Below, one piece after another: positions 6,727-60,314 of a stretch of 64,000 nt of DNA. Every line of letters starts with the position of its first letter. Within the stretch, counting starts at the first letter, position 1. The stretch comes from Candidatus Uhrbacteria bacterium. Lineage in GTDB: Bacteria; Patescibacteriota; Patescibacteriia; UBA9934. The notes beneath the pieces are model-generated. The model worked only from the letters and a program-made list of their open reading frames with translations. It was not told where the DNA came from and ran no database searches. Location of the stretch: contig CALRCK010000001.1 in the NCBI GenBank assembly GCA_943354605.1, positions 148,936 through 212,935 of the forward strand. The letters run 5' to 3'. A program made the position numbers and the translations under genes.

Positions 6727-6776
6727 AGATGTCGGAATGATAGCTGATTTTATCGGCGAAGCTAAGCTTCGCCAAA

Positions 6777-6856
6777 ACAAAGTCCGACTTTGATTCATCG
6801 AATTTATAAAATACATGGCGTTTTTAGAAAGAGTTTAGGTCAAAGTCGGACTTTGA
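6777..6856 (-). promoter_or_regulatory. Pair of 15-17 bp palindromes (cAAAGTCcGACTTTg at 6777-6793 and its reverse complement at 6840-6856) bracketing a TATAAA box upstream of the ferric-reductase gene
   Basis: Seen directly in the sequence. The centre-to-centre spacing is about 63 bp, and the intervening minus strand reads 'TATTTTATAAAT'. Confidence 0.45.
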
Positions 6857-6870
6857 CCTAAACGAGAACG

Positions 6871-6892
6871 CCCCGGCCTGCGTGGCCGGGGG
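6871..6892 (-). terminator. GC hairpin (ccccggcc-tgcgt-ggccgggg) downstream of tdk
   Basis: Perfect 8-bp GC stem just 3' of the tdk stop on the minus strand. The U-tract is weak. Confidence 0.35.
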
Positions 6893-6912
6893 TTCGTGGG
6901 GTCGCGCCTTGA

Positions 6913-7500
6913 TCACTCCGCTGGAGTTCCTTCCGGAATCCAGTGGAGGATGCAACGAGCGTCGTAGTTTTCCTTTTCACCGACCAGCACGACCTCGGTG
7001 TCTCTCGTGAGGCGCTGCGAGAAGCTGGCCGTCTGTCCGCACACCGTGCAGATCGCGGTAAGCACCGTGATGCTGTCGGCGACCGCCAGGAGCGCAGGTC
7101 CGGGGCCGGGGAAAGGGTCCCCGGCGAAGGTCTGGTTCAGGATGACGAGGATCACGCGTCGCCCGGTCTGGCGGAGCCACCGAACGAAACCGACAAGCTC
7201 GTCATCGAAGAATTGCGCTTCGTCGATCCCGACGACCTCGATGTCGTCCGTGATGAGCTCTCGCATCTGGGCGACCGTGTGAACCGGATTCGCCATGAAC
7301 CTGCCGCCGCAGTGGCTCGCGATTCGCACCGGATCGTAGCGTCCGGAATCGTTGGCGTGCTTGAACACGATCAGCTTCTGCTTGGCGTATTGCGCACGAC
7401 GCAGGCGCCGAATGAGCTCTTCCGTCTTGCCGCTGAACATGCAGCCGGTGATGGCGTCGATCGAACCTGTAATCTGGCGGGTGTGAGATGCTGCGGTCAT
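6913..7500 (-). CDS. tdk: thymidine kinase
   Basis: 'ITGCMFSGKTEELIRR' P-loop and a C-terminal Cys cluster 'CTVCGQ...ARC'. The gene is conspicuously GC-rich relative to its flanks. Confidence 0.85.
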   Translation of the reverse strand: MTAASHTRQITGSIDAITGCMFSGKTEELIRRLRRAQYAKQKLIVFKHANDSGRYDPVRIASHCGGRFMANPVHTVAQMRELITDDIEVVGIDEAQFFDDELVGFVRWLRQTGRRVILVILNQTFAGDPFPGPGPALLAVADSITVLTAICTVCGQTASFSQRLTRDTEVVLVGEKENYDARCILHWIPEGTPAE

Positions 7501-7639
7501 GAACGGTCTCCTGGTGACCGATGCATTTTAGACGATTTGCGAGTGCGGAAAATGTTGTGCCGTGGATAACTCATTGTTGTGCACAGTCTATGCATTATGT
7601 TGAACACATTTTGTCCACACGGCGTGATAAAATGGGGTC

Positions 7640-8776
7640 ATGAGAATAGGTATCGATGCAAGATTCTACGGCCCGCGTGTTGGAGGCGGCGGCCTCGGCC
7701 GTTACACCGCAGAATTGGTGACGGCACTGCAGGACGTGGATAAGGAAAATGAGTACGTGCTTTTTTTACGCAAGGAAAACTTTCACGAGTGTGCCATTAC
7801 CAACGGAAACTTCACCAAACGCATGGTGGATGTTCCGTGGTATTCGTTTGCAGAACAGCGCGAAATGCCACGCGAAATTGCGTTGGCCAAGGTGAATCTC
7901 ATGCACTATCCGCATTGGAACGTGCCGATATTTTCCCGCGTGCCGTTTGTGGTGACGATTCACGACCTCATCTTGCTCGAAGATCCTGCGTCGTCGCGCG
8001 CAACCACGCGAAATGCCTTTCTGCACGGCATCAAGAGCATCGGCTACCGCATTGCGCTTGAAGCAGCGATTCATCGCAGCAAGCACATCGTCGCGATTTC
8101 CGAATACACCAAGCGATCCATTCTTGAGCACTTCCGGGTGCCTGGAGGAAAGATTTCCGTGGTGTACAACGGGGTTCGTCCGCCAGTAGGCGCCGAAAAG
8201 GCGACGCTTGCAGCGCTTGGTGTGCAACAGCCGTATGTGTTGTCTGTTGGCAATGCGTATCCGCACAAAAATCTCGAAACCACACTTCTTGCCTTCCGAA
8301 AACTTTGTGCCTCCGACGAGCGAACCATGCTTGTGCTCGCGGGAAAGCGCGATATGTTTGTGGAAAAGCTCGAGGCGTTTGCGCTGGAGATTGGCATTCC
8401 GTCGTCGCGGATTCGATTCGTGAACACGCCGACAGACGCGGTGCTTGCGCGGCTCTATCACGATGCTGCCCTCCTCGTGATTGCATCTCGCATTGAAGGG
8501 TTTGGCATTCCACCACTTGAGGCGCTTGCGCTGGGCATTCCTGTTGCCGCAAGCCACGCGTCGTCGTTACCCGAAGTGCTTGGAGACACGGTGCGATATT
8601 TTGACACTGACGATGAAGACGCCCTTGCCCGACTGATGTTCGACGCAGTCCATCAGCCAAGCGCATGGCATGGCCTGAAAGCTGCCGGTATTCGCCAAGC
8701 CGAGAAGTTCTCGTGGAAAAAGACGGCGCTTGCGATGAGAGATATCTATCGAAATTTTGCTGACCGACGACTGTGA
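7640..8776 (+). CDS. glycosyltransferase family 4 (GT1/GT4 fold)
   Basis: 'MRIGIDARFYG...' N-terminus and a C-terminal 'EGFGIPPLEALALGIPV' donor-binding motif. Confidence 0.8.
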   Translation: MRIGIDARFYGPRVGGGGLGRYTAELVTALQDVDKENEYVLFLRKENFHECAITNGNFTKRMVDVPWYSFAEQREMPREIALAKVNLMHYPHWNVPIFSRVPFVVTIHDLILLEDPASSRATTRNAFLHGIKSIGYRIALEAAIHRSKHIVAISEYTKRSILEHFRVPGGKISVVYNGVRPPVGAEKATLAALGVQQPYVLSVGNAYPHKNLETTLLAFRKLCASDERTMLVLAGKRDMFVEKLEAFALEIGIPSSRIRFVNTPTDAVLARLYHDAALLVIASRIEGFGIPPLEALALGIPVAASHASSLPEVLGDTVRYFDTDDEDALARLMFDAVHQPSAWHGLKAAGIRQAEKFSWKKTALAMRDIYRNFADRRL

Positions 8777-17846: not shown

Positions 17847-18470
17847 TCACGGGAAGTTCGGCCACCACGTCTCGAAGGCGTTCGGAGCGTTGAAGGTCGC
17901 GGCGTTCGGGCGTTCGCGCTTGAGGCGCTCGGCGTAGGCCGCGGCGATCTCGATGCACTCGGCGGAGAGGCCACACTTCGAGGAGACGTGGCTCAGCGCC
18001 AAGTCTTTCACCTCGGGGACGAGGCTCGCCGTGCAGATCGTCAGCATCGCCTTCACCTTCTGGATCACCATCTCGGCCGCTTCGCTGGGGAAGCAGAGCG
18101 GGACGAGCTGTTCGGCGTTCTTCGTACCCTGACACACCTCTGTGCCCATCGCTGCCGCTTTTCGCCGAGCCTGGATGCTGCTCGCCGTGGGCTGGCGGGA
18201 GAGCCACATGCTGACCACGAGCAGGGCGAGCCGCTTGTCCTCCGGGAAGTCGGAGTTGCCGCACAGCTCACGGAGCTCCAAGACGGTGATGCTGTCGGGG
18301 AGCCGGTTCGGGAGAACCTGCTTCCGACGCGGGGCGGGCGACGGGGGGCCGCCCTTGAGCTTGCCGCTATTGCCCTTGGGCGTGGAGTCCGGCTCGCTGG
18401 CCCACCCTTTGTCGAGGGTGGCACGACGGCCGGTGCCGGAGGGTGAAGCGAAAGGGGAGTCGAAGAACAT
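17847..18470 (-). CDS. hypothetical protein (inside a GC-rich island)
   Basis: 207-aa ORF preceded by a TTGACG-N18-TATACT promoter-like sequence and followed by hairpins. No family recognised. Confidence 0.4.
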   Translation of the reverse strand: MFFDSPFASPSGTGRRATLDKGWASEPDSTPKGNSGKLKGGPPSPAPRRKQVLPNRLPDSITVLELRELCGNSDFPEDKRLALLVVSMWLSRQPTASSIQARRKAAAMGTEVCQGTKNAEQLVPLCFPSEAAEMVIQKVKAMLTICTASLVPEVKDLALSHVSSKCGLSAECIEIAAAYAERLKRERPNAATFNAPNAFETWWPNFP

Positions 18471-18535
18471 GGAGAGACCTCTGTAGTGTCTGACGTGGGG
18501 TTGCCACCACCGGCGATTCCGGGGGAGCGGGGGAA

Positions 18536-18565
18536 AGTATATGCCACTTTTTTGGCAAACGTCAA
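18536..18565 (-). promoter_or_regulatory. sigma70-like promoter (TTGACG-N18-TATACT) for the 17847..18470 gene
   Basis: Read on the minus strand as 'TTGACGtttgccaaaaaagtggcaTATACT'. Confidence 0.4.
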
Positions 18566-18584
18566 TAAATTTTCCTAAAAGTAG

Positions 18585-18663
18585 TGCGATAAAAATCGAA
18601 TCCCTCCGATCTACGCGTGAGATCGGAGGGTCCGTGGGTGCGGCGGCTGATGAGCCGCCGCAC
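18585..18663 (-). terminator. Two tandem perfect hairpins (18602-18630 and 18638-18663) followed by a U-run on the minus strand, forming a terminator for the 18706..19122 gene
   Basis: ccctccgatc-N9-gatcggaggg and gtgcggcggc-tgatga-gccgccgcac, followed on the minus strand by 'AUUCGAUUUUUAUC'. Confidence 0.5.
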
Positions 18664-18705
18664 CGGGTTGTGGAGCCGAACGGCGAGCGAAGCTCGGTCG
18701 CCTGG

Positions 18706-19122
18706 TTAGTTCGTGTCCTCGTCGTCTTCCGGCGGCCGAGGTTGGTTCTTCAGGCGGACCGGTTTCTCCTCGGCAGGACGCTTCTTGCGGATCTCACGAG
18801 CCTTGAGCTTCGGCGCCACGGCGTAGATGCTCCGCGCCTCGGCCATGACTTCGTCGATGATCTGGTGCGTGCCGTTGGGCAGCGCCTCCGGGCACTGCCC
18901 GATCGTGAGGATCACTTCCACGAGGCGACGGCGCGCGGCTTCGAGGGCCTTGCGCTGTTCACCGGGTTGCGTCCGCTGCTTCATGCTGCGGATGCGCTGA
19001 TGATGCGCGGTGGCACGACGCTCCAGCCGGGAGATGGGATCTGCCTTGGAGCTGTTCCCGCGCGGGATGCGGCGGACGTGGTGCTGCGGGTTGTGGCGAG
19101 GGGTGATGTTGACGAGGTTCAA
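18706..19122 (-). CDS. hypothetical basic protein (inside a GC-rich island)
   Basis: 138-aa ORF, Arg/Lys-rich, no family recognised. Confidence 0.35.
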   Translation of the reverse strand: MNLVNITPRHNPQHHVRRIPRGNSSKADPISRLERRATAHHQRIRSMKQRTQPGEQRKALEAARRRLVEVILTIGQCPEALPNGTHQIIDEVMAEARSIYAVAPKLKAREIRKKRPAEEKPVRLKNQPRPPEDDEDTN

Positions 19123-19223
19123 GAGCGTGCTCCTGGTTCGGTTTGCCTAACGCCGCCCCGGGATGGGAACGGTCGCGAAAGAGTGTCATACTTTTGAGGT
19201 TTCGTCAACGACAAAAACGTGTA

Positions 19224-19342
19224 GGGGTTTCTCATTTGTGACAATTTTCGGTGCGTATCAAGCAAATCTCGCGAGGCGTACTTTATGTGTACGTTGAGCG
19301 AGTTTGCGATGATGCAAGCCGAAAATTGGCCAAATGAGGAAG
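19224..19342 (-). mobile_element. ~120-bp MITE-like element with terminal inverted repeats (copy A, reverse orientation)
   Basis: Aligns end to end with the copies at 30424-30544 and 41096-41215. Its TIRs are 'cttcctcatttggccaattttcg' and 'cgaaaattgtcacaaatgagaaaccc'. Confidence 0.7.
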
Positions 19343-19447
19343 ACCGAACGAAAACCCCCAGGATCATCGATTTTCGATAACCCTGGGGGTCGGTCGAGGC
19401 GTTTCGTCGCCTCGACCCGTTGCGAGCCGCACTGGAACGTACCGAAC

Positions 19448-20077
19448 CTAGTGGTGCCCGCCGCCTCCGCCGCTCGGTTTGGGTGCAGCGTGGCCACCCT
19501 TCCCGCCGCTCAGCGCGAAGGCGCCGAAAGCGAAGAAGATTCCCCAGCACGCCTCTTTGGTGAGGAGGTGGTTGAGGCCCCAATACATCAGGCTTTCCGG
19601 GATGGCCCAGAACACCAGGTGCACCAGGGAGCCGACCACCCAGCCGAAGGGGTGCTGGGAGAACGGACACCCGCTCATCTTCTGCGGGATCGAGATCACA
19701 TCGCCACCGAAGTGGCAGAGGCTGTCCCAGATGCCGTAGAAGAAGTTCGCGAAGCCGATCAGGACGTACCAGACGACTCCCAGGTATCCGCTGTGGAAGT
19801 CGATGGTGTTCGCGGGGTTGTGGAGGTACGCGCTGCCGACCACTGCCACGATGACGAACGTCGCGAGCACTTTGTGGTGCCAGGCGAAGCCGACGAGGAG
19901 GAACGGGAGGCGGACGATCCACCAGATGATGCGGAAGGGGAGAGAGAAGAGCCAGAACAGGGACGTGAGCACGAGAAACTCCGGGAACGAGAAGAAATGG
20001 AAGGTTAAGAAGGGCTCCAGAGGAAACAACGAGTGTTGCGCCTTCTGGTGCCGGCCGATGCTCCGCGTGGGGAACAT
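19448..20077 (-). CDS. polytopic membrane protein, hypothetical
   Basis: Several hydrophobic helices. I chose the start at 'MFPTRS' to avoid overlap with the next gene. Gly/His-rich C-terminus. Confidence 0.4.
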   Translation of the reverse strand: MFPTRSIGRHQKAQHSLFPLEPFLTFHFFSFPEFLVLTSLFWLFSLPFRIIWWIVRLPFLLVGFAWHHKVLATFVIVAVVGSAYLHNPANTIDFHSGYLGVVWYVLIGFANFFYGIWDSLCHFGGDVISIPQKMSGCPFSQHPFGWVVGSLVHLVFWAIPESLMYWGLNHLLTKEACWGIFFAFGAFALSGGKGGHAAPKPSGGGGGHH

Positions 20078-20108
20078 CGGCCAGTGTCGTTGCTGTCGCG
20101 GGAGGCGA

Positions 20109-20507
20109 TCAGCGGGGGTCGAGGATGAGCGGCCGGCGGGAGCTTGCCAGGCGGCGACGGGCCGGACCGGTCGTGGCGTCATCGATGCTGACGCGGACGA
20201 TCTCCAACAGCTCCCTGGCTTCGAACACCATCCACACACCCGTGCCACCCAGCATCAGGACGATGCAGAGGCCGAGGAGCTCTCCCTGCTCGAAGAGGCG
20301 GAGCTCCGGGTGGCGGATACTACAGATCACCAGCGGGGAGATCGCGACCGCCGCGGCGGTGATGCTCGCCCAGCAGAAGAAGCGGGTCCGGCCGCCGACG
20401 AAGAGGTTGAGGAGTGTGAGGGGAAGGGATTGGAGAACCATGAGAGCACCGGGGAACGGGTGGAAGGTAACGCGATGTATCATAGCAGAAAAACACCCTT
20501 TTGTCAA
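20109..20507 (-). CDS. small membrane protein, hypothetical
   Basis: 132-aa ORF with three predicted helices. The start may instead be at 20483. Confidence 0.35.
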   Translation of the reverse strand: MTKGCFSAMIHRVTFHPFPGALMVLQSLPLTLLNLFVGGRTRFFCWASITAAAVAISPLVICSIRHPELRLFEQGELLGLCIVLMLGGTGVWMVFEARELLEIVRVSIDDATTGPARRRLASSRRPLILDPR

Positions 20508-20519
20508 TGCAAAAAGGCG
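20482..20519 (-). terminator. rho-independent terminator downstream of trpS
   Basis: The minus strand reads 'cgccuuuuugcauugacaaaagggug' as a hairpin followed by 'UUUUUCUGC'. Confidence 0.5.
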
Positions 20520-20552
20520 TTTTTTGTGGCTAATCTTAGCCGGTTTTGTTGT

Positions 20553-21533
20553 TTATAACACTAGCCCCATGTGTGCTTTTGTGAGCTGGATTTTGGTGTT
20601 TGCCTGCGCCGCCGCTTTTTCTGCTCCTTTGGCCAAAATCGCGATGAGCGCGAATTCGTCCACGAGCAATTCAGTCATTTTCTGCTGGATTGGGGAGAGA
20701 AAATCGATCAGCGCGGTTGCGGTGGCGTCTTTGAACGCTTTGTTTCCTTGGCTATCGAATTCTGCTGCGATGTCTGTGATTGATCGGCCGGTGGCGAGCG
20801 AATGAATGGTGAGGAGGTTCTTGAGCCCAGGCCGCGAGTCGTCAGCGGTGATGCCCGGCAGGGAATCGGTGACGGCTGAGCGAATCTTTTTCGCGATGGT
20901 ATCGGCGTCGTCGGTCATCGAAATGTAGTTCTTTGCACTTGCCGCGCTTTTGCTCATTTTCTTCTCCGGATTATCGAGCCCGAGAATGCGCGCGCCTTCG
21001 GATCGGATGATCGGCTTTGGCACCACAAACGTCTCACCAAAATCGCGGTTGAATCGCTCGGCAAGGTCGCGCGTCAGCTCAACGTGTTGCTTCTGATCCT
21101 CACCGACCGGAACAACGTCGGCGTCATGCAAAAGAATATCGGCTGCCATCAAAATGGGGTAGGTAAAGAGACCAACAGAAACGTTTTCCTTTTTTGCCGT
21201 CGCCTTGTCTTTATATTGCGTCATGCGTTCAAGCTCACTCATACGGCCAACGGTCTGCAACAACCATCCCAGCTCGGCATGAGCAGGGACTTGAGACTGT
21301 TGAAAGAGCACAGTCTTCTCTGGATCGATCCCAGCTGCAAGGTACGCCGCGGCAAGGAAGAGAATGTTCTTCCGAAGTTGTGCAGGATCCTGAGGAACCG
21401 TGATGGCGTGCAAATCCACGATCATCATTGTCAGGTCATAGGTTTTCTGCATTTCGACTGCTGGAAGCAGTGCGCCAAAGAGGTTCCCGATGTGCAAAGT
21501 ATTCGTAGGTTGAATTCCGGTGAGTGCTCGCAT
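20553..21533 (-). CDS. trpS: tryptophanyl-tRNA synthetase
   Basis: 'TGIQPTNTLHIGNLFGAL' (HIGH region) and 'KMSKSAASAKNYI' (KMSKS). I chose the start at 'MRALTG'. Confidence 0.85.
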   Translation of the reverse strand: MRALTGIQPTNTLHIGNLFGALLPAVEMQKTYDLTMMIVDLHAITVPQDPAQLRKNILFLAAAYLAAGIDPEKTVLFQQSQVPAHAELGWLLQTVGRMSELERMTQYKDKATAKKENVSVGLFTYPILMAADILLHDADVVPVGEDQKQHVELTRDLAERFNRDFGETFVVPKPIIRSEGARILGLDNPEKKMSKSAASAKNYISMTDDADTIAKKIRSAVTDSLPGITADDSRPGLKNLLTIHSLATGRSITDIAAEFDSQGNKAFKDATATALIDFLSPIQQKMTELLVDEFALIAILAKGAEKAAAQANTKIQLTKAHMGLVL

Positions 21534-42801: not shown

Positions 42802-43512
42802 TTATTGCGCTGCTTCCGAGCTCGCGGAAGATGCTGGCGGGGTTTCTGTGTCGTGGATTGGCGGAAGTGCGGCGTCGATGAGCGCCTTAAACGGCTCGAG
42901 ACCTTGTGGGCTCTTAATTTCCATGCCGTTCAAGAAAAACGTTGGGGTTGCGTTGATATTCGCTGCATTGCCACCGTTCATGTCGTCTTTAATGGCGCTG
43001 AGAACGGCGTCGCTGGTAAGATCGGTTTTGAATTTTTCAACATCGAGACCAAGCGACGTTGCGTACCCAAGAAAAAGACCTGTTGGATCAGCTTCGGCGC
43101 TCCACGTTTTCTGGTTGCCGAACAGTACATCGTGCATCAAGAAAAACTTTCCCTGGATTCCTGCAGCTTCTGCGGCTTGAGCAGCGAGTTGAGCATTCGG
43201 ATGAATCGTTGTGAGTGGATAGTTACGATAGACGATTTTCAGCTTGTCGCCGTACGCTTCCTCAAGACCTTTCACGACTGGGAAATACGCACCACATGCC
43301 GGGCACTGGAAGTCGCTGTACTCCACGAGCACGACAGAAGCGTCCTTGTTGCCAACAAACCAATCGCTGTCGTTCACTGGAACGCTGAGGGTCTGTGGAT
43401 CATTTGCGTGGTCCTGTGCGTTGCCAATCCATGCCATGCCCGCAACCACCACAACGATGCCGGCAAGAATCGTGGTGATGCGCCCAACAAGCCCAAATTT
43501 CATGTTTGCCAT
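42802..43512 (-). CDS. DsbA-family thiol-disulfide oxidoreductase
   Basis: 'SDFQCPACGAYFPV' CxxC motif with an N-terminal membrane anchor. Sits immediately downstream of the VKOR gene. Confidence 0.75.
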   Translation of the reverse strand: MANMKFGLVGRITTILAGIVVVVAGMAWIGNAQDHANDPQTLSVPVNDSDWFVGNKDASVVLVEYSDFQCPACGAYFPVVKGLEEAYGDKLKIVYRNYPLTTIHPNAQLAAQAAEAAGIQGKFFLMHDVLFGNQKTWSAEADPTGLFLGYATSLGLDVEKFKTDLTSDAVLSAIKDDMNGGNAANINATPTFFLNGMEIKSPQGLEPFKALIDAALPPIHDTETPPASSASSEAAQ

Positions 43513-43577
43513 AGTGCGATAAGGGTATCAAAGAACAGGGAAACGAAAAAGAAGTCCGTTCAGGACTTCTTCATCGA

Positions 43578-43653
43578 TGGTGGACCGTATCGGGATCGAA
43601 CCGATGACCTTCTGACTGCCAGCCAGACGCTCTACCAGCTGAGCTAACGGCCC
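43578..43653 (-). tRNA. tRNA-Ala (anticodon GGC), G3:U70, CCA encoded
   Basis: The minus strand reads gggccgt|ta|gctc|agctggta|gagc|g|tctgg|cuGGCag|tcaga|aggtc|atcgg-ttcgatc-ccgat|acggtcc|a|cca. Confidence 0.8.
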
Positions 43654-43664
43654 AAAGGATGTCC

Positions 43665-43741
43665 TGGTGGACGCCGGGGGATTCGAACCCTCGACCCTCT
43701 CGGTGTAAACGAGATGCTCTAACCAGCTGAGCTAGGCGTCC
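43665..43741 (-). tRNA. tRNA-Val (anticodon TAC), CCA encoded
   Basis: The minus strand reads ggacgcc|ta|gctc|agctggtta|gagc|a|tctcg|uuUACac|cgaga|gggtc|gaggg-ttcgaat-ccccc|ggcgtcc|a|cca. Confidence 0.8.
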
Positions 43742-43823
43742 AAATATCCTATCGCCGAGCAATAGTACCGGAAGGCTTGAATCTTTTCAATCTTGAGGTT
43801 ATGCTTCTGCCCGTTCCTTTGGT

Positions 43824-45446
43824 CTATTTGCGCGGATGGTGAAATGGTAGACACGCCAGCTTGAGGGGCTGGTGGCCGCAAGGTCGTGGAGGTTCGAGTC
43901 CTCTTCCGCGCACCAATACAGAACTCAACGGCTTTTTCAAAGCCAGAAGGTGGGACGCGCGAAGCGCGTCCCACTGATTTCCCCCCATTTTTCCAAACGA
44001 ATTTGGAGCACCGCCTTCGGCGGTGCGCACTGTTTTTTCGCCAAGAAGCAGGTTCGAGCCAAAGATTTCTTTGGCAACGACCTTTTTCGCAAAAGGGTTG
44101 CTATCCCGTGCGATTCTACTTAGATTTTGAGCGTCTTTTATCCACTCCTTCATCGGTTCGAGCCAATCATTTTGCTTTTGTAGAAGTGAAGATATTTTCT
44201 CTTCCAGCGACTTCTTTGTAAATAACAACTTTGATTTTTCAGCACGATATATTTCTTGTTCAATAACTTGGTCTAAATAGCCGTCAAGAAGTCGCTGGAG
44301 CTTCGCTTCAATATTTTTGATTTCTTTTTTCACTTCTTCTACAAAAGCAGAATTAGACTGGGCAGATTTTTTGTGGTCTTGCAGAGCAAGACGATTTAGT
44401 TCTTCCGCCCAGTCTGGTGGCAAAGAAACTGATTTGATAAGTGATGATAGCTGTTTGTCTAATTCCTCTTGGCGAATACAAGGTTCGGGACATTTTATAT
44501 TTTTGTTTTTCTTTGAACAATGGTAGTAAGTGTAATTATGCACATTTCCATTTTTCTGTTTCTTAACCTTGTATTCGCCAGTTATCATCATTCCGCATGA
44601 GGCGCAAGAAATTAGTCCACAAAAAGGTTGAGGTTCATTTTTAGATTTTCTGTCAGGTACACCGCGAAGTTTCAAAATTTCTTGCGCCTTATCAAACAGT
44701 TTCTTTGACACAATTGGCTCGTACTTTCCCTCATGGCGTTCACCGCCATATTTGAACAAACCGATGTAAAAAGGATTGGAAAGAATAAAAGACGCTCTAG
44801 TTTTGGAGATTATCTTTCCGCCTCTCGAAACGATTCCATTTTTCGCCAAAAAGTTTGAGATGTCTTCTAATCTACTTTCACCTTTCGCGTATTTCTCAAA
44901 AGCCAAGCGAATGACGCGAGATTTTTTCTTGTCCACTACGACAGATTTTGTGCGAGAGTCGTTGATATACCCCACTGGCGCTTGGCTTGGATAATCGCCA
45001 TTACGAACTTTTTGGCGAAGCCCTCGTTTCGTGTTTTCGGAAAGAGAATCTACATAGTATTTGCTTTGCCCAAAGGCGATGTTGAGCATAAATTTTCCTT
45101 GTGAAGTGTTTTCACACCAAAAAGTTGGAAATTTCAATATCGCCAAATGCCCGCAATCCAAAAGATAAATTATTCGTCCACCGTCCACAGAATTGCGCGC
45201 CAAGCGATCCGGATGCCAAGCAAGGATAGCATTTGCATCGCCGTTTTCAATACGCGAAATCATTTTATTAAACACTGGACGACCAGGAATTTTAGCCGAT
45301 TGTTTTTCAATCAATTCTTCGGCGATATGCAAACCCTCTTGCTTGGCATACGCGCGCAATTCGGTGAGTTGGGCGTCAATAGATAAAACCTGCTTGTCCT
45401 CAACATCGGTGGACTTGCGGGCATACAAAAAGAATTTTTGTTCCAT
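43824..45446 (-). CDS. large serine recombinase (resolvase/invertase N-domain + recombinase domain + zinc ribbon)
   Basis: 'FFLYARKSTDVEDKQVLSIDAQ' catalytic Ser region, 'LAWHPDRLARN', and 'CGLISCASCGMMI...YYHCSKK' Cys cluster. I chose the start at 'MEQKFF' (45446). The frame stays open through IR1-L and antisense across tRNA-Leu, so the natural C-terminus is uncertain. Confidence 0.75.
   Translation of the reverse strand: MEQKFFLYARKSTDVEDKQVLSIDAQLTELRAYAKQEGLHIAEELIEKQSAKIPGRPVFNKMISRIENGDANAILAWHPDRLARNSVDGGRIIYLLDCGHLAILKFPTFWCENTSQGKFMLNIAFGQSKYYVDSLSENTKRGLRQKVRNGDYPSQAPVGYINDSRTKSVVVDKKKSRVIRLAFEKYAKGESRLEDISNFLAKNGIVSRGGKIISKTRASFILSNPFYIGLFKYGGERHEGKYEPIVSKKLFDKAQEILKLRGVPDRKSKNEPQPFCGLISCASCGMMITGEYKVKKQKNGNVHNYTYYHCSKKNKNIKCPEPCIRQEELDKQLSSLIKSVSLPPDWAEELNRLALQDHKKSAQSNSAFVEEVKKEIKNIEAKLQRLLDGYLDQVIEQEIYRAEKSKLLFTKKSLEEKISSLLQKQNDWLEPMKEWIKDAQNLSRIARDSNPFAKKVVAKEIFGSNLLLGEKTVRTAEGGAPNSFGKMGGNQWDALRASHLLALKKPLSSVLVRGRGLEPPRPCGHQPLKLACLPFHHPRK
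43830..43915 (+). tRNA. tRNA-Leu (anticodon GAG), type II, CCA encoded. Its 3' end is the junction of an inserted element.
   Basis: gcgcgga|tg|gtg|aaatggtaga|cac|g|ccagc|uuGAGgg|gctgg|long variable arm|gaggttcgagtcctc|ttccgcgc|a|cca. Confidence 0.8.
43909..44057 (+). repeat. IR1-L: ~150-bp inverted repeat (left copy) containing three GC hairpins, including gcaccgcc-UUCG-ggcggtgc
   Basis: Nearly identical, in reverse complement, to 45514-45661. Confidence 0.8.
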
Positions 45447-45513
45447 AGAGGGATTATAGCAAAAATTCTTTTTGTTGGGCAAATCCTTTTTTGAATTTGT
45501 ATCGCACGGGATT

Positions 45514-45661
45514 TCGAACCTGCTTCTTGGCGAAAAAACAGTGCGCGTCGCCGAAGGCGACGCTCCGAATTCGTTTGGAAAAATGGGGGGAAATCAGTGG
45601 GACGCGCTTCGCGCGTCCCACCTTCTGGCTTTGAAAAAGCCGTTGAGTTCTGTATTGGTGC
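45514..45661 (-). repeat. IR1-R: inverted copy of IR1
   Basis: Reverse complement of 43909-44057, with one point difference plus two compensatory base-pair swaps in the UUCG hairpin. Confidence 0.8.
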
Positions 45662-45970
45662 CTTTACTATACCAAGTTAGAACCTATTTTCAAAATAAAA
45701 TATCATAGTGTTTCCCGCGCGCTAAAGCGCCACCACGCGAAGCGTGGTGCTTCTGCTGAAGCAGAAGTGCGGGAAAACGCTCTGCACTCCGCCACAATGT
45801 TTTGGGGGCAAAGGAGGCGGAGTGCAGAAATGCGGAACGCGAGCGAAATTTTGCGAAATGCTGGGGGTTTGGGGGAAAGTATTTCGCAAAATTCGCTTCG
45901 CGTGCTTCCTGATTTTTTGGCGACAGAATTGCGGGGTAAAATTGTTCAAATTCGGATTTTTTGATATAAT
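45656..45970 (+). repeat. IR2-L: ~313-bp perfect inverted repeat (left copy) ending in an inward-facing promoter
   Basis: Exact reverse-complement match to 48518-48830. Contains hairpins ccacgcg/cgcgtgg, cttctgc/gcagaag and ctgcactccgcc/ggcggagtgcag. Confidence 0.85.
45942..45970 (+). promoter_or_regulatory. sigma70-like promoter TTGTTC-N17-TATAAT driving the HD-hydrolase gene (inside IR2-L)
   Basis: Perfect -10 and a 17-nt spacer, with the ATG 13 nt downstream. Confidence 0.55.
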
Positions 45971-45982
45971 GTTTTTGATATT

Positions 45983-46576
45983 ATGAAGTTTACTATCAAA
46001 GTTATTAATGCGATTAGCCAAGCAGCGATTTGGCATAAAGACCAAGTTCGCAAGGACTTTGAAGAAACGCCTTATATTGCGCATCCATTTTCTGTAATGC
46101 TGACCCTTTTGGAATTTACAAATGATGAAGATGTTTTAATCGCTTCATTATTCCATGATGTTTTAGAAGATGTAAATCTAAAACTTGCTGAAATTATAGA
46201 AAAAGAATATGGCTCCAAGGTTATAAAAATTGTAAAAGCATTGAGCGAAGACAAAGATCCTGAAAAACAAACTGATGCCAAAGCCACATGGCGCTCGAGA
46301 AAATTAGGATATTTAGAACATCTTAAACTTGCTCCGAAGGAGGTCCTTTTGATAAGCTGTGCGGACAAGCTAGACAATTACCATACGCTTGCCAACACCA
46401 TCGAAAATTACGGCTTCAATATAGCATTAAAAAATTTTAATGCTCCGCTCAAAGATCAATTATGGTTTGCTGATGAAATAATAGAAATTTTCAAGAACCG
46501 TCTACATGGTCATCCACTGGTCAATCGTCTTTCGCAAATAATCAATCACATCAAAATCCTATCAAATACTCATTAA
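45983..46576 (+). CDS. small alarmone hydrolase (SpoT/RelA-like HD-domain (p)ppGpp hydrolase, SAH)
   Basis: 'PYIAHPFSV...LFHDVLEDV...VKALSEDKD...RKLGYLEHL...CADKLDNYHTL' parallels the RelA/SpoT HD hydrolase motifs (HPL.V, HDVVED, VTK, RKM, KLADRLHN). AT-rich codon usage. Confidence 0.65.
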   Translation: MKFTIKVINAISQAAIWHKDQVRKDFEETPYIAHPFSVMLTLLEFTNDEDVLIASLFHDVLEDVNLKLAEIIEKEYGSKVIKIVKALSEDKDPEKQTDAKATWRSRKLGYLEHLKLAPKEVLLISCADKLDNYHTLANTIENYGFNIALKNFNAPLKDQLWFADEIIEIFKNRLHGHPLVNRLSQIINHIKILSNTH

Positions 46577-46887
46577 TTAATTTCAGAATCTAATTTTTCT
46601 TTAGCCTTTGCAAAATCCACCATTGTTTTTTCCTCAGGCAAACTGCCATAATATAACCTTGTATATTCATCAATTATTTCTTGGCCTTCGCTTCCGTTTA
46701 GATCTTTCCCTTGTATGTCTTGGCGCCAATAAAGCTCAACAAATTTTTGATAATCAAACGGTTCCTTATTGTAAGGATTTTCATTAATTAACTTATCCAA
46801 GCTCGCTTTTTTTTCTTCTCTAATTTTCTTATAAATCATATTCTGGTCTTCTGGGGATATAAAGTTTGTTTTTTCATTCATAGACAT
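46573..46887 (-). CDS. hypothetical protein (last gene of the zeta-like operon)
   Basis: 104-aa Lys/Glu-rich ORF in AT-rich cargo. Confidence 0.35.
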   Translation of the reverse strand: MSMNEKTNFISPEDQNMIYKKIREEKKASLDKLINENPYNKEPFDYQKFVELYWRQDIQGKDLNGSEGQEIIDEYTRLYYGSLPEEKTMVDFAKAKEKLDSEIN

Positions 46888-46916
46888 AATTAGTATTCTT
46901 AAATTTAATTATAATA

Positions 46917-48332
46917 TTATTGCGCTTTACTATCAAGAGCCACGCCGATAGTTTTACCTAAATATTGTCGTAAAGTTTCTGCTGTTTTTTCTGCAAATTG
47001 TTGTGATTTTTCATCGAAATATGTCGCTGTAAAATTTTGTATGTATTCTTCTGTGATTACAGTATTGTTGATCCTTTCTATCTCTTCTTCCGGTTCTTCA
47101 ATTGATTGGCCGGCTAAATTCTCTCTACCCTCAATAATTCTAACTTTTCCAGCTTCTTCATCCCACACGGCGACTTCAACGGATTGTCTTAATTCCTTGT
47201 CATAAGCCATTAAAACATATCCATTGACTAACTGCGGATTATCATCTAAAGATTTATGTTGGACCTCACGATTTCCTCTAATCCCTCGAAATCCCTGCGC
47301 CACACCATCAAAGGCTATGTTTGGATCGGCGCCTCCCTTTTCACGTTCCAAAACTCTTACAGCGGAAAGCTCGAGCGGAACATCAATATCCATAATTGCA
47401 ATCTTACGGCCAGTTTCCTTAGCACTTTCAATCATTTCTTCTATGTCCGCATGCTCATTCATTAATTTATCGAAAACTACCGATGTATCTGCGCTAGATA
47501 CTTCTTTTTTAACAGCTCTTCCCAACATGGTACTTTCAGCATGAACTTGAGTAGACGATAAATTGCCTTTTTCTTTGAGCGGTCCCTTGAAAACATCTGG
47601 CGCCAATGAGCCGCTTGGTTGTCCTTTTTCATCTAAAATGCCTTTAAACATCTCATGCCCCCTGCGAAGAGCGGTTGTTTTACCTGCCCCGGGAGATCCG
47701 CGTAAAGCAAAAATTGTTGGGGGAGGAATTCTAGGGTTTTCTCTTTCGAGCCTCCTAGATAAATCCAAGGCCTGTTGAGTGTTTTCTCTTTTCAATCGTT
47801 CGTGTAATGACCGTCTACCATCCCAATTTTCAGGATTATCGTAGATTGTGCTTCTTTCTTTCTTAGACAATCCTGTCGTATCAACAAGGCAAAAAACCTT
47901 AGATGTATCTATATTTGGGTCTCTTGATAATAATTCAATGTTTTTATCATAACCTTCTTCACTTCTATGGCCTTCTTGGCTTGATGTAGGTTCTCCCGCG
48001 TCCGTTATTTCTCTAATTTTCCCCACTTCTTCGCCTGCAAGTTGCGTAGCTTCTGTTTGTATTTCATTCAGTTTTCCATCAAGCCCTTGTTCCTGCCGAA
48101 CGGCTGATAACATATCGGGAGATACACTCATGCTTTGAGATGATAACTCAATTCTCTGTTGCGCTTCCGGCAAAACATTGGCTGTTTGTTCAGCAATATT
48201 TTTTTCGGCGGAAACAGCGAATTGTTCTACCTGTTTGTTGCTGACCTCCGCCTCAACGGCTTCTTCCGGTGACCTGATTTCTGTTTCTGCTGTTTCTATT
48301 TTAGCTTGGGGTGAAAAACGTTCTGTTTTCAT
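46917..48332 (-). CDS. zeta-toxin-family P-loop kinase with long acidic N-terminal extension
   Basis: 'PTIFALRGSPGAGKTTAL' Walker A, followed by 'LAPDVFKGPL' (zeta/PezT-like Asp region) and 'IAIMDIDVPLELS'. The N-terminal ~190 aa are acidic and low-complexity. Confidence 0.55.
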   Translation of the reverse strand: MKTERFSPQAKIETAETEIRSPEEAVEAEVSNKQVEQFAVSAEKNIAEQTANVLPEAQQRIELSSQSMSVSPDMLSAVRQEQGLDGKLNEIQTEATQLAGEEVGKIREITDAGEPTSSQEGHRSEEGYDKNIELLSRDPNIDTSKVFCLVDTTGLSKKERSTIYDNPENWDGRRSLHERLKRENTQQALDLSRRLERENPRIPPPTIFALRGSPGAGKTTALRRGHEMFKGILDEKGQPSGSLAPDVFKGPLKEKGNLSSTQVHAESTMLGRAVKKEVSSADTSVVFDKLMNEHADIEEMIESAKETGRKIAIMDIDVPLELSAVRVLEREKGGADPNIAFDGVAQGFRGIRGNREVQHKSLDDNPQLVNGYVLMAYDKELRQSVEVAVWDEEAGKVRIIEGRENLAGQSIEEPEEEIERINNTVITEEYIQNFTATYFDEKSQQFAEKTAETLRQYLGKTIGVALDSKAQ

Positions 48333-48499
48333 AGTTGCTTTAATGATTTTCTAAGCTCGTCCAATTTTTTCTCTTTGAGCGTGTCTAAAAAATCGGCGAC
48401 GATATCATCGCGCTTTTTCTTAAGCACGGAAAATTTGGCTGCAAATTCCGTCACTATTTTCTCAATTTCTTTTTTCTTTTGTAAATTTTTATTGGTCAT
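48329..48499 (-). CDS. 56-aa helical ORF translationally coupled (ATGA overlap) to the zeta-like kinase; candidate epsilon-like antitoxin
   Basis: Not in the supplied ORF track (<60 aa). Translated by hand it reads 'MTNKNLQKKKEIEKIVTEFAAKFSVLKKKRDDIVADFLDTLKEKKLDELRKSLKQL*'. Its stop overlaps the kinase ATG. Confidence 0.35.
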   Translation of the reverse strand: MTNKNLQKKKEIEKIVTEFAAKFSVLKKKRDDIVADFLDTLKEKKLDELRKSLKQL

Positions 48500-48517
48500 A
48501 TTCTATATATTGAGTCT

Positions 48518-48830
48518 ATTATATCAAAAAATCCGAATTTGAACAATTTTACCCCGCAATTCTGTCGCCAAAAAATCAGGAAGCACGCGAAGCGAATTTT
48601 GCGAAATACTTTCCCCCAAACCCCCAGCATTTCGCAAAATTTCGCTCGCGTTCCGCATTTCTGCACTCCGCCTCCTTTGCCCCCAAAACATTGTGGCGGA
48701 GTGCAGAGCGTTTTCCCGCACTTCTGCTTCAGCAGAAGCACCACGCTTCGCGTGGTGGCGCTTTAGCGCGCGGGAAACACTATGATATTTTATTTTGAAA
48801 ATAGGTTCTAACTTGGTATAGTAAAGGCAC
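48518..48830 (-). repeat. IR2-R: inverted copy of IR2 carrying the mirror promoter (ATTATA...GAACAA on the plus strand at 48518-48546) reading leftwards
   Basis: Exact reverse complement of 45656-45970. Confidence 0.85.
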
Positions 48831-48835
48831 CATCG

Positions 48836-48865
48836 AAAACGAAGCCTGACCGGGCTTCGTTTTTG
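48836..48865. terminator. bidirectional hairpin terminator just outside IR2-R
   Basis: 'aaaacgaagcc-tgaccg-ggcttcgtttt' flanked by A-run and T-run. Confidence 0.5.
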
Positions 48866-48886
48866 TTTGTGATAAAATAACCGTAT

Positions 48887-49120
48887 ATGTTTCAGCGAAT
48901 TCTTATTGGCCTCTTCATTACTGCGATGGGGTGGATGATGGTGTGGAAAACGCGGTGGTTTGAAGACATGCTCGGGCCAGTGGCGTGGGCGGAACAGCAT
49001 TTGGGCACCACAAACTTTTTTTACAAGCTTTTGGGAACCGCGGTGATGATTCTTGGCTTCATCGTAACGTTGAACTTGTTTGATATCATCATTGGCAGTT
49101 TTGTTCGCTCTATTTTCTAA
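48887..49120 (+). CDS. small membrane protein, hypothetical
   Basis: 77-aa ORF with two hydrophobic helices. Confidence 0.3.
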   Translation: MFQRILIGLFITAMGWMMVWKTRWFEDMLGPVAWAEQHLGTTNFFYKLLGTAVMILGFIVTLNLFDIIIGSFVRSIF

Positions 49121-49123
49121 TCC

Positions 49124-49669
49124 ATGGCTGGTAGCGCTTTACTCGATGCAAACGTGATCCTTGAGATTGCGAACCTCCGCCCCGGGTATCGTGTGGCGGA
49201 TTTTGGCGCCGGCGGCTCCGGACATTTAGTGTTGCCGGCTGCGCGATTCCTTGCAGACGACGGCGTGGTGTACGCGGTAGATATTCATCCCGAAGCGCTG
49301 TCCATGTTGCGCGGCCATCGATCGCTGCATTCGCTCTTGAATTTGTATCCTGTCCGAGGAGACATCGAACGATTTGGTGGAATTGCCCACATTGAACAGG
49401 GTTCACTTGATCGCATTTTCCTCATCAACACCTTGTGGTCGGCACGTCGCAGGGCATCAATCGTCGCCGAGGCTCGTCGTTTGCTCGCGCCGGAGGGTCA
49501 GATTATCGTTGTGGATTGGGAGCCGCAAACCCGCCATGTGGTAGCACCGAATGTCGCCGATCGCGTTGCGCCGTACGCGGTTGATCGTCTCTTTTCCGAA
49601 GGCGGATGCCAGGAATGCGGCAAGTTCCGCGCAAGCCGCGATCATTGGGGGAGAATTTACAGTCATTAG
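49124..49669 (+). CDS. class I SAM-dependent methyltransferase
   Basis: 'VADFGAGGSG' motif I and 'VVYAVDI' motif II. Confidence 0.6.
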   Translation: MAGSALLDANVILEIANLRPGYRVADFGAGGSGHLVLPAARFLADDGVVYAVDIHPEALSMLRGHRSLHSLLNLYPVRGDIERFGGIAHIEQGSLDRIFLINTLWSARRRASIVAEARRLLAPEGQIIVVDWEPQTRHVVAPNVADRVAPYAVDRLFSEGGCQECGKFRASRDHWGRIYSH

Positions 49670-58748: not shown

Positions 58749-59279
58749 TGCTATCCTCGATGTGTACGGTGTGCGAGGGGGAATGATCGTCGATAGGTTA
58801 GGGTTCGGAGGAACGCGGGGAATTCGGAAACGGGGAAACAGAGACGGTCGAGAGGTTTTACGAGGAGTAATCCTCGACGCAGCTGCTGCTGCGATTCAAT
58901 CTGGGTAACCGCGAAGGGGAACCTCTGCGGAAATGGTGGTAGCCAACGCACATCAGCCGTGATTCCTACGGGCACGGTCCCTTGATTGGATGAAAAACCA
59001 GACCAACAGCTAAGGCGACCTGATGGTCATAAATCGAGCGAGCTGATGAAGTTCGTTTTCCGAAAGGACGGCTGGGGAGCCGGATGCCGAAGCTTTGGGC
59101 GCGGGGCTGACGGGCCAAAAGCCCGAACAGACAACAGCGCGGTACTCTCCACACCACCCTTACGAGAAGCACTTTCGGCCATACGCGGCTGGAGGTGCTT
59201 CTTCATTAAAAACCGACGAGCCCGACCTCTTGCGAAGCCGGGCTCTCGTGGGGTTCTGACCGGCGCGGTTGCGCTTGGG

Positions 59280-59807
59280 TCAGTTCTCGTTGCTGGCGAC
59301 CGTCGGCACCGGCACGTTGACGATCTGCCCGATCGCCAACTTGTTCACGTCGATGTCCGGGTTCGCCTTCTCCATGTCCAGCCGGTTGATCCCGTACAGC
59401 TTGCCGATGCTGGCCAGGTGCTCGCCGGCTTTCACCTTGTGCTGCCGCATGCCGCCGGTGTTGGCCGGGGTCTGCGTGGCGGTCGCGGGCTGCGGCGGCT
59501 GCGGGTTCGGGGTGGTGGTGCCGTGGCCGTTGTAGGCGATGAGGCACACGACCACGAACGCCACGGACATGGCCGAGAAGGCGAGGTTGATCGGCGCCTT
59601 GCGGTTCCAGGCCACGAAGCCGAAGAGGATCGATCCCCCCTTCCGCTTGGCCCAGCCGTAAAGCGCGCTGACGCCGCTGCCGAAGGCCTGCGTCGACTCG
59701 ACGAAGCTGCGGGCGTCGCGGTGGACGCCCATGTTCTCGAGATCGCTGTCCGACAGGCGGTCGGGGTTGGAGGGGGTGGGGGACGGGGGGAGGACGGGTT
59801 CGTCCAT
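59280..59807 (-). CDS. LysM-domain protein with N-terminal TM anchor (GC-rich gene)
   Basis: C-terminal 'HKVKAGEHLASIGKLYGINRLDMEKANPDIDVNKLAIGQIVNVP' is a canonical LysM. I chose the start at 'MDEPVL'. Confidence 0.65.
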   Translation of the reverse strand: MDEPVLPPSPTPSNPDRLSDSDLENMGVHRDARSFVESTQAFGSGVSALYGWAKRKGGSILFGFVAWNRKAPINLAFSAMSVAFVVVCLIAYNGHGTTTPNPQPPQPATATQTPANTGGMRQHKVKAGEHLASIGKLYGINRLDMEKANPDIDVNKLAIGQIVNVPVPTVASNEN

Positions 59808-59933
59808 GAGGGACTCCAAGGGCCGAGAAAGTGAGTGGCCACTGCAATTCTACCTCATTTTCAGCCAAAAGTCCACTTTATAGCTATTCTCGGCTCGGTT
59901 TGGTATCGTGTGGGTATTCTTGACCCCTATTTT

Positions 59934-60314
59934 ATGGACGATATGAACGATGGGAGCACTCAGGGTTCGGCAAAACAGGCGGAGGTAGTTCCGCCAGGAA
60001 GGGGCGCATCGAACGATCGGTTGATGGCGGCACTCGGGTACGTTGGTGCGCTGTGTCTTATTCCGCTGATCTTCGCTCGCCAGTCTCCGTTCGCTCAGGA
60101 ACATGCCAAACAAGGACTCGTGCTTTCGTTGATTGCCATTGTGGTAAAGGTTTTTGCGCCTGGCTTATGGCATATCCCGTTCGGTGGCTTGCTGGTGATG
60201 GTGGCGGGTTTTGCGATCTTTATCACGGCGATCATGGGGTTGGTTAAGGCATTACAGGGCGAGAAGTTTGAAATCCCGTATATCAGTGATTGGGCACGAA
60301 AGATTCACTTCTAG
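59934..60314 (+). CDS. DUF4870-like small membrane protein
   Basis: 'RLMAALGYVGALCLIPLIFARQSPFAQEHAKQGLVLSL' pattern. Confidence 0.5.
   Translation: MDDMNDGSTQGSAKQAEVVPPGRGASNDRLMAALGYVGALCLIPLIFARQSPFAQEHAKQGLVLSLIAIVVKVFAPGLWHIPFGGLLVMVAGFAIFITAIMGLVKALQGEKFEIPYISDWARKIHF

Follow-up and report, generated by a model that had tools for sequence, protein, structure and literature searches.

The AT-rich cargo of a mobile island in a Candidatus Uhrbacteria contig (CALRCK010000001.1) probably represents a four-gene mobile toxin–antitoxin cassette built around an AvrRxo1/Arc1-type pair, an explanation to which, taken as a whole, we assign a probability of about 0.55. The 64,000-nucleotide (nt) stretch of this contig that was analysed is called the window below. 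The cargo comprises a forward-strand gene for a small alarmone hydrolase (SAH; 45983–46576), an HD protein of 197 amino acids (aa) with a single RelA/SpoT-type HD_4 domain, and three convergent genes on the reverse strand: S56 (48329–48499), encoding a 56-aa basic single-helix protein; the gene for a 471-aa zeta-superfamily kinase of the AvrRxo1/XopAJ type, the putative toxin, which S56 precedes (46917–48332); and, directly 3' of the kinase gene, a 104-aa Arc1-like open reading frame (ORF; 46573–46887). The S56 stop codon overlaps the kinase start in an ATGA ('...caactATGAaaaca'). The stop codons of the convergent SAH and Arc1-like genes overlap by 4 nt, so their transcripts must overlap, possibly as a regulatory feature. 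The GC content is about 33–44% in the cargo and island, as compared to ~52% in the flanks. An original prediction, made from the letters alone, had read the ORF positions, the motifs, the ATGA overlap and the AT-rich character of the cargo correctly; it described three of the four cargo genes and overlooked the key partner, the Arc1-like ORF.

The kinase is a member of the zeta-toxin superfamily, as it matched the Pfam profiles Zeta_toxin (PF06414; E 4.9e-9, 36.3 bits with a cut-off of 22.3) and AAA_33. Its match to the NCBIfam profile of XopAJ/AvrRxo1 (NF041405) reached an E-value of 1.9e-60 and covered profile positions 15–322 of 324, and residues 164–466 matched the AvrRxo1-ORF1 structure 4z8q_A with an E-value of 9.3e-30. 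An AlphaFold2 model, in which the predicted local distance difference test (pLDDT) score of the kinase domain was mostly 85–98, was compared with solved structures in Foldseek, all template modelling (TM) scores being normalised to the target. AvrRxo1 was matched with a TM-score of 0.86, a root-mean-square deviation (rmsd) of 2.6 Å and an E-value of 9e-22, with 30–31% identity over the structural alignment, while the zeta/PezT structures 1gvn, 3q8x and 2p5t gave TM-scores of 0.51–0.57 and rmsd values of 7–8 Å. The kinase had been predicted to be zeta/PezT-like; its place in the superfamily stands, but it is specifically AvrRxo1/XopAJ-like. Since it is far closer to AvrRxo1 than to zeta/PezT, the phosphorylation of uridine diphosphate N-acetylglucosamine (UDP-GlcNAc) typical of zeta toxins is not the expected chemistry. 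The characterised relative, AvrRxo1, adds a phosphate to the adenosine-ribose 3'-OH of nicotinamide adenine dinucleotide (NAD) and nicotinic acid adenine dinucleotide (NAAD), yielding 3'-NADP and 3'-NAADP, and is slow on ATP and ADP (PMC5087710).

The catalytic residues listed for AvrRxo1 are K166, T167, D193, K196 and R287 (PMC4938570). In a 23-sequence alignment, the counterparts of the first four were invariant, namely the Walker A segment G215–T219 with K218 and T219, D246 (equivalent to AvrRxo1 D193) and K249. Residues R326, R330, R352 and R355 were invariant as well, in a stretch that lines up with the surroundings of AvrRxo1 R287 without fixing the exact counterpart of this residue. Across 25 loci (those gathered for comparison are numbered L0xx), K218, D246, K249 and the arginines were kept, position 219 being an arginine in L040 and L042.

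Upstream of the kinase domain lies an N-terminal extension of ~160 aa, AvrRxo1 homology beginning at residues 158–164. It had been described as a ~190-aa acidic disordered extension; the acidity was borne out (isoelectric point, pI, 4.5), and the segment proved shorter and partly helical, with residues 32–111 modelled as long helices (pLDDT 64–74) and residues 1–31 and 109–140 at low confidence. The extension is fast-evolving and variable in length, and kinases without a Fic-type C-terminal extension span 424–579 aa. In L031, it contains four copies of a 48-nt tandem repeat at 362–490 that are 60–100% identical. The clade I kinases (L040, 435–2666; L042, 4080–6392) measure 743–770 aa and carry a C-terminal extension, which in L042 has a weak Fic/Doc match (E 0.007), consistent with Triplett et al. 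These kinases would thus hold two toxin-type domains per protein; next to their genes come a divergent HD_4 gene and, after it, an arc1-like gene.

Queried alone, the 104-aa ORF had AvrRxo1-ORF2 (Arc1) as its top PDB match at a marginal E-value of 0.057, whereas a profile of 17 members of its family matched Arc1 and nothing else among 177,635 PDB sequences (E 2.2e-10). Triplett et al. defined the Arc1 signature as KExFD…(Y/L)ExxYY (PMC4938570). The ORF has KEPFD and the YY, the latter within a variant YTRLYY, and the spacer of the motif is 29 residues long as compared to 25–27 in the known motif. K41, F44, Y79 and Y80 do not vary in the family alignment, and E42 and D45 hardly do. An Arc1-like ORF follows the kinase gene in all loci with downstream sequence except L041. 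Taken together, the homologies of the kinase and of the 104-aa ORF identify the core of the cargo as an AvrRxo1/Arc1-type module rather than an epsilon/zeta module, an assignment in which we have high confidence. A consensus scan placed a promoter-like pattern on the reverse strand (46908–46936; TTGATA, 17 nt, TATAAT; 11 of 12 consensus matches) within the 3' end of the kinase gene, 20 nt before the Arc1-like ORF; as a pattern match, it is a candidate for a separate antitoxin promoter.

The SAH matched the Pfam profile HD_4 (PF13328; E 1.1e-14, 54.9 bits with a cut-off of 27.2), the only domain in its 197 residues, as well as the hydrolase part of TIGR00691 spoT_relA (E 1.5e-19). Its closest solved relatives are SAHs, 7qoc (E 3.2e-24) and 7qoe (E 8.3e-20). 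The motifs HPFSV, HDVLED, VKALSED, RKLGYLEH and CADKLDN begin at residues 34, 58, 84, 106 and 126, and every cassette SAH keeps the catalytic and metal-binding residues H34, H58-D59, E62-D63, D128 and N131. Judged by its sequence, the HD protein is an SAH with intact catalytic residues, and the earlier alignment with the RelA/SpoT hydrolase domain was therefore sound.

That the SAH belongs with the pair is indicated by related loci, which were collected by kinase-only queries and in which every ORF was scanned with purpose-built hidden Markov models (HMMs). An SAH gene adjoins the kinase/Arc1 pair in ~15 of 22 non-redundant loci with enough flanking sequence and was never found elsewhere in the flanks of these loci. 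The linkage is present in all three major kinase clades, down to a kinase identity of ~32%. The original prediction would have been refuted by a pairing of hydrolase and kinase unique to this locus; the adjacency instead recurs in many loci and in four gene orders. In the window, L001, L004, L009, L024, L027/28, L031–34, L043, L046 and L049, the kinase and Arc1-like genes face a convergent SAH gene, often with overlapping stop codons. In L040 and L042, which encode the 743–770-aa kinases, the order is kinase, SAH, Arc1 with overlaps of 1–4 nt; in L048 and L051, the same order is preceded by S56; in L053, located within a toxin–antitoxin gene cluster, the order is kinase, Arc1, SAH with a 14-nt overlap. 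Gene overlaps of 1–14 nt indicate co-translation. In Candidatus S. aalborgensis, Triplett et al. noted that an ORF without a name separates the kinase gene from the arc1-like one, in a paper that mentions neither 'hydrolase' nor 'SpoT' (PMC4938570); this is probably the layout with the SAH in the middle.

For L053 (P0030), a distant relative not seen before, the presence of an SAH was predicted beforehand and then found. The L053 genes (5246–10021; GCA_039738715.1) have Phd/ParE upstream and two PIN-domain genes downstream. Between L004 and the window, the kinase and Arc1 are 73% and 72% identical, but the SAH just 39%, and L032/33 show the reverse mosaic pattern; SAH genes have thus been exchanged while their position was kept, with at least one swap of lineage. 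Domain searches of the five island ORFs and ten flanking ORFs detected no alarmone synthetase domain, nor was any alarmone synthetase family recorded for the called genes of related loci with precomputed Pfam annotation. We consider it very probable that the SAH is functionally linked to the kinase/Arc1 module.

S56 has homologues in 12 clusters with 66–93% identity and 27 invariant columns, all on short contigs (the longest is 5.9 kb), and this conservation supports its status as a real gene. More distant versions precede the 32–34% identical kinases of L046 and L048 and the kinase of L034. Searches of Pfam, NCBIfam, PADLOC and PHROG returned no family match. AlphaFold2 predicted a single uninterrupted helix over residues 2–55 (pLDDT 95.7), and the protein is basic (pI 9.7). 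S56 is missing from most kinase loci, although an SAH is present wherever S56 occurs (8 of 8 evaluable loci). Coiled-coil pairing of S56 with the acidic helical N-terminus of the kinase is a reasonable guess from the predicted structures. In L001-type cassettes (also L002 and L003), S56 is preceded by a gene for an XRE-type helix-turn-helix (HTH) protein of 66 aa (L001, 5622–5822), which the window lacks, and L001 has a second HTH gene just beyond the far repeat arm (8908–9120).

These observations can be joined with published chemistry into a mechanism with two layers of control. AvrRxo1:Arc1 is an experimentally validated toxin–antitoxin pair with the antitoxin gene downstream (PMC4938570). 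By analogy, the kinase would be the toxin and would most likely use ATP to phosphorylate NAD or NAAD at the adenosine-ribose 3'-OH, possibly modifying other adenine nucleotides too; the 3'-phosphorylated dead-end metabolite would arrest growth. The 104-aa Arc1-type antitoxin would bind and block the kinase 1:1. Cells are known to accumulate 3'-NADP, which was reported to be no substrate for classical NADP phosphatases (PMC5491322). Bacterial and metazoan SAHs remove the 2'-phosphate of NADPH, and bacterial SAHs also the 3'-pyrophosphate of adenine and guanine alarmones, cleaving the 3'-O–P bond of (p)ppGpp and (p)ppApp (PMC9765508). SAHs moreover detoxify toxic small alarmone synthetases (toxSAS) by reversing the 3'-pyrophosphorylation of the tRNA CCA end (bioRxiv 10.1101/2021.04.30.441581). 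The SAH of the cassette could therefore act as a second, enzymatic safeguard that strips the 3'-phosphate installed by the kinase, regenerates NAD and makes the intoxication reversible: Arc1 would sequester the kinase, and the SAH would erase its product. S56 would be an accessory factor, perhaps pairing with the kinase N-terminus or serving in regulation.

We give the specific eraser chemistry, in which the SAH removes the very phosphate that the kinase installs, an even chance. One hypothesis of the original prediction had the kinase making a toxic phosphorylated nucleotide that the HD enzyme detoxifies, and among the readings it offered, this appears to fit the conserved, often operonic gene linkage best. 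A bolder version, in which the cassette SAH is a dedicated phosphatase of 3'-NADP (or 3'-phospho-adenine nucleotides) and 3'-phospho-NAD signals dormancy in these bacteria reversibly and in the manner of an alarmone, with the kinase as its writer and the SAH as its eraser, is offered more tentatively, being somewhat less likely than not to hold. If it holds, the cassette would be the first toxin system of the zeta superfamily to combine a stoichiometric protein antitoxin with an enzyme that erases the product of the toxin, and the convergent twin-promoter layout with its invertible flanks, described below, would set the balance between writer and eraser.

Several observations weigh against this reading. 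The NF041405 score of the kinase, 204.8 bits, is below the curated cut-off of 300 bits, which places the protein on a distant branch outside the curated subfamily of plant-pathogen effectors, and NAD as its substrate is extrapolated from a relative with 30–31% identity. A Saccharibacteria-like kinase sub-clade (L005–8, L011, L012, L014, L016 and L038) has no SAH, so the eraser is dispensable. In the window itself, the SAH gene and the kinase operon are convergent and do not form a single operon. As linkage is partly inherited with the mobile cassette, the locus counts are not fully independent. SAH homologues with 51%, 38% and 35% identity stand alone in related genomes, so the linkage is not universal from the SAH side, and in a tree, stand-alone SAHs (31–50% identity) interleave with those of cassettes, which consequently do not form an obviously specialised lineage. 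Finally, a fusion of the kinase with an HD_4 domain was found in none of 38 long family members scanned.

These long proteins belong to an AvrRxo1-like kinase family of ~440 clusters at E ≤ 1e-10 and 216 at E ≤ 1e-30. Many members measure 1,000–3,400 aa and have the kinase at or near the C-terminus. Among the same 38, five carried eCIS_core domains and one a Metallophos (calcineurin-like phosphoesterase) domain, the latter possibly a fused eraser of another fold. A scan of a genome collection with the full kinase alignment yielded one true relative among the matches listed, from Candidatus Saccharibacteria (RGIG2542), two Streptomyces P-loop matches being judged spurious; the metagenome scan was queried with the kinase alignment without the P-loop pattern. 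No kinase relatives were detected in the viral contigs, phage genomes and plasmids searched, so a phage or plasmid origin is unsupported in these collections.

The SAH could be linked to the cassette and still act on (p)ppGpp/(p)ppApp or NADPH instead of the kinase product, tuning the stringent or redox response during toxin stasis or guarding against incoming (p)ppApp-synthetase toxins, with kinase and Arc1 forming an ordinary two-component toxin–antitoxin system. We regard this as unlikely. It is favoured by the full canonical motif set of RelA/SpoT-homologue (RSH) hydrolases, by the best PDB relatives being (p)ppGpp/(p)ppApp hydrolases, by the stand-alone SAHs of the same lineage and by the kinase sub-clade that does without any SAH. 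It leaves unexplained, however, why the SAH is placed so tightly and repeatedly between or after the kinase and Arc1, sometimes with translational coupling, in four architectures and three clades, and why its lineage could be replaced with the position kept; no alarmone synthetase gene is present in the island or flanks, and the 3'-OH chemistry of AvrRxo1 fits the bond that SAHs cleave. A still less likely role for the kinase is that of an effector delivered into other cells, such as an episymbiont's host bacterium or competitors, and thus antagonism rather than addiction or defence. Arc1 would then be a chaperone or immunity protein, the SAH a second, enzymatic immunity with the same chemistry and S56 an adaptor for the N-terminal helices. 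AvrRxo1 itself acts as a secreted effector and is chaperoned by Arc1 (PMC4938570), the variable ~160-aa extension with the tandem repeats of L031 would suit such a protein, and so would the relatives in Candidatus Saccharibacteria and the long family members with a C-terminal kinase, since eCIS_core is typical of delivered toxins. Yet the island encodes no secretion signal, secretion-system gene or delivery domain, it integrates at a tRNA gene, L053 sits among Phd/ParE and PIN genes, and the gene organisation is typical of toxin–antitoxin modules.

The original prediction also considered an epsilon-like/zeta toxin–antitoxin pair with an independent SAH, in which S56 would be the antitoxin of a zeta toxin and the SAH an unrelated passenger. 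The ATGA overlap with the kinase gene and the conservation of S56 agree with this view, and a physical interaction between the basic S56 and the acidic kinase N-terminus is plausible. We nevertheless rejected S56 as an epsilon-like antitoxin and consider the whole alternative very improbable: S56 matches no antitoxin family, it is predicted to form one long helix where epsilon is a three-helix bundle, it is absent from most kinase loci whereas a single one lacks an Arc1-like ORF behind the kinase gene, and the recurrent linkage makes the SAH clearly no passenger. What stood of the earlier description is that the 56-aa ORF is helical and overlaps the kinase gene. HD domains serve as phosphoesterases in HD-Pnk enzymes, and the Foldseek list for the kinase model includes the bacterial polynucleotide kinases 4gp7 and 4jt2 (TM-scores of 0.63–0.69 over ~180 aligned columns, E 3e-4), which could hint at an RNA end-healing or repair pair like HD-Pnk/Pnkp, combining a 5'-kinase with a 2',3'-phosphoesterase. 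This we find extremely improbable, as the AvrRxo1 match is far stronger (9e-22 against 3e-4) and spans the whole domain, the HD protein is of the RelA/SpoT HD_4 type, a cognate Arc1 antitoxin homologue is present, and neither a ligase nor a Hen1 partner is found in the island or flanks.

The cassette rides on a serine-recombinase island (43916–48832) that starts immediately 3' of the CCA end of a forward-strand tRNA-Leu(GAG) gene, its integration target (43830–43915; ARAGORN; Rfam tRNA, 53.3 bits). The large serine recombinase (43824–45482, reverse strand, a 552-aa ORF) matched the Pfam profiles Resolvase (7.6e-21), Recombinase (3.8e-16) and Zn_ribbon_recom (6.2e-9) and the integrase group PHROG 95 (4.6e-81). 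Its gene is flanked by the 148-nt inverted repeat A, the left arm of which (43910–44057) matches the right arm (45514–45661) at 97%. The cargo is flanked by inverted repeat B, with arms of 315 nt that match at 100% (45656–45970, forward; 48518–48832, reverse). A core sequence occurs three times: as an attL-like GCACCA at the tRNA 3' end (43910–43915), as an inverted, attP-like TGGTGC at the junction shared by the end of repeat A and the start of repeat B (45656–45661), and as an attR-like GCACCA at the outer end of the right arm of repeat B (48827–48832). Behind the last copy stands a host terminator hairpin (48834–48865) that would naturally follow the tRNA. The nested order is thus tRNA, core, arm A, recombinase, arm A', inverted core, arm B, cargo, arm B', core and terminator. 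The flanks of the three core copies can be read as attL, inverted attP and attR; with a core of just 6 nt, the precise point of crossover is inferred. Arm coordinates in L001 imply a repeated core of ~44 nt.

L001 (3401–8819, on an independent 118-kb contig) has the same nested layout at a tRNA-Ser, with arms of 95% and 98% identity. As the layout recurs there with imperfect arms, we rejected the idea that the perfect inverted repeats of the window arose during assembly. Homologous recombinases adjoin the related cassettes in L001 and L046, and the left arm of repeat A in the window is 96% identical to L046 3301–3447. Relative to the window, the cargo is oppositely oriented in L001 and the recombinase in L046, so both segments look invertible. 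Within 43824–44057, the last ~78 codons of the recombinase run through arm A into the tRNA-Leu antisense, and within 45472–45708, the other arm encodes the same peptide as a separate 78-aa ORF; inversion or excision would alter the recombinase C-terminus. Arm A also contains a terminator-like hairpin (44008–44026). A hit to NmsRb in repeat A (43947–44034) scored 30.4 bits against a gathering threshold of 52 (E 0.08) and is probably due to chance; in the Rfam search of 43400–49200, only three tRNAs passed.

Each arm of repeat B carries at its inner end an extended −10 element (TGATATAAT), seen on sequence inspection in the left arm as TG at 45962–63 and TATAAT at 45965–70. It lies 13 nt before the SAH start and, in the right arm, points at S56–kinase–Arc1, 18 nt before the S56 start. 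Identical promoters thus seem to serve the two convergent units and would drive them towards each other. The inner ~57 nt of arm B are kept at both ends of the cassette in L024 and L025 and in part in L031 (61 and 38 nt) and L026 (30 nt); the short contigs L027, L028 and L035 include one cassette end each, where they are kept as well. The outer part of arm B (45700–45960; mirrored at 48528–48788) is GC-rich and dense in short hairpins, with a 26-nt palindrome pair at 45837–45903; it matched nothing in Rfam and lacks conservation among related loci, and L001 has a different palindrome pair at the equivalent place. This outer part could function as an operator or insulator, or could encode a small RNA. 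PADLOC defence-system models gave no meaningful match among the five island proteins, and PHROGs gave only generic ones. Elsewhere in the window, which averages a GC content of ~0.52, values of 0.58–0.64 were recorded at 18001–21000 and 59001–60000.

The AvrRxo1/Arc1 pair, its presence in candidate phyla and the role of SAHs as toxSAS antitoxins are already known, the last from Jimmy et al. 2020 (PMC7229694), which the original prediction had cited as 'Jimmer et al. 2020'. The conserved cassette of kinase, Arc1 and SAH, with or without S56, appears to be undescribed in the searchable literature. In the literature searched, 'small alarmone hydrolase' and 'zeta toxin' were not combined, AvrRxo1 was not combined with terms for the candidate phyla radiation (CPR) in any paper listed, and AvrRxo1 met alarmones only in a general toxin–antitoxin review and a Dickeya toxin–antitoxin study, each naming AvrRxo1 once. 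If the proposed mechanism is correct, it would add a new class of physiological SAH substrate, a 3'-monophosphate on NAD, and the first enzyme expected to recycle 3'-NADP. It would also help to explain at least some of the 'orphan' SAHs, which lack an alarmone synthetase as partner, and the toxin–antitoxin repertoire would gain the combination of a sequestering antitoxin with an enzymatic eraser against a zeta-family toxin. The cassette occurs widely in metagenomes, and some carriers at least belong to the Saccharibacteria or Parcubacteria, whose metabolism is minimal and in which NAD salvage may be critical.

Among known systems, the closest is AvrRxo1:Arc1 of Xanthomonas oryzae pv. oryzicola and its relatives, in which a zeta-superfamily NAD 3'-kinase is both toxin and type III effector and the gene downstream encodes its antitoxin and chaperone. 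The cassette shares with this system the kinase fold, the catalytic residues, the toxin-first gene order, a small acidic partner of ~100 aa with the KExFD…YY motif and the setting of an AT-rich module on mobile DNA. Distant AvrRxo1 homologues in Parcubacteria and Candidatus Saccharimonas were already listed by Triplett et al. (PMC4938570). Unlike AvrRxo1, the window kinase has an acidic helical extension where AvrRxo1 has its type III secretion signal, and the cassette adds a conserved SAH gene, an S56 gene and the twin-promoter inverted repeats.

With epsilon/zeta and PezAT, the cassette has in common the Pfam Zeta_toxin domain, a P-loop kinase with catalytic Asp and Lys, and the form of a toxin–antitoxin module on mobile DNA. 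In epsilon/zeta, however, the antitoxin is an upstream three-helix bundle, whereas the window has a downstream Arc1-like antitoxin homologue and a single-helix S56 upstream. Epsilon/zeta and PezAT toxins are UDP-GlcNAc 3'-kinases, while the substrate expected by analogy for the window kinase is NAD, and the structural similarity is much weaker than to AvrRxo1.

The toxSAS–SAH pairs (such as FaRel/ATfaRel and PhRel2/PaSpo; PMC7229694) likewise place a single-domain RelA/SpoT hydrolase beside a nucleotide-modifying toxin, and their SAHs neutralise by degrading the product of the toxin, a 3'-pyrophosphorylated adenine nucleotide or tRNA end, and not by binding the toxin (PMC7229694; bioRxiv 10.1101/2021.04.30.441581). 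In contrast to them, the putative toxin of the window is a zeta-superfamily P-loop kinase with no RelA/SpoT synthetase nearby. A separate Arc1-like antitoxin is encoded as well, so the SAH would be a second layer, and the product to be erased would be a 3'-monophosphate.

A purely functional analogy can be drawn with DarT/DarG, in which the toxin installs a covalent mark, the ADP-ribosylation of DNA, that the partner enzyme erases. The proteins and the chemistry are unrelated, and in DarTG a single protein both erases the mark and binds the toxin; in the cassette described here, the roles of eraser and binder would be split between the SAH and Arc1.

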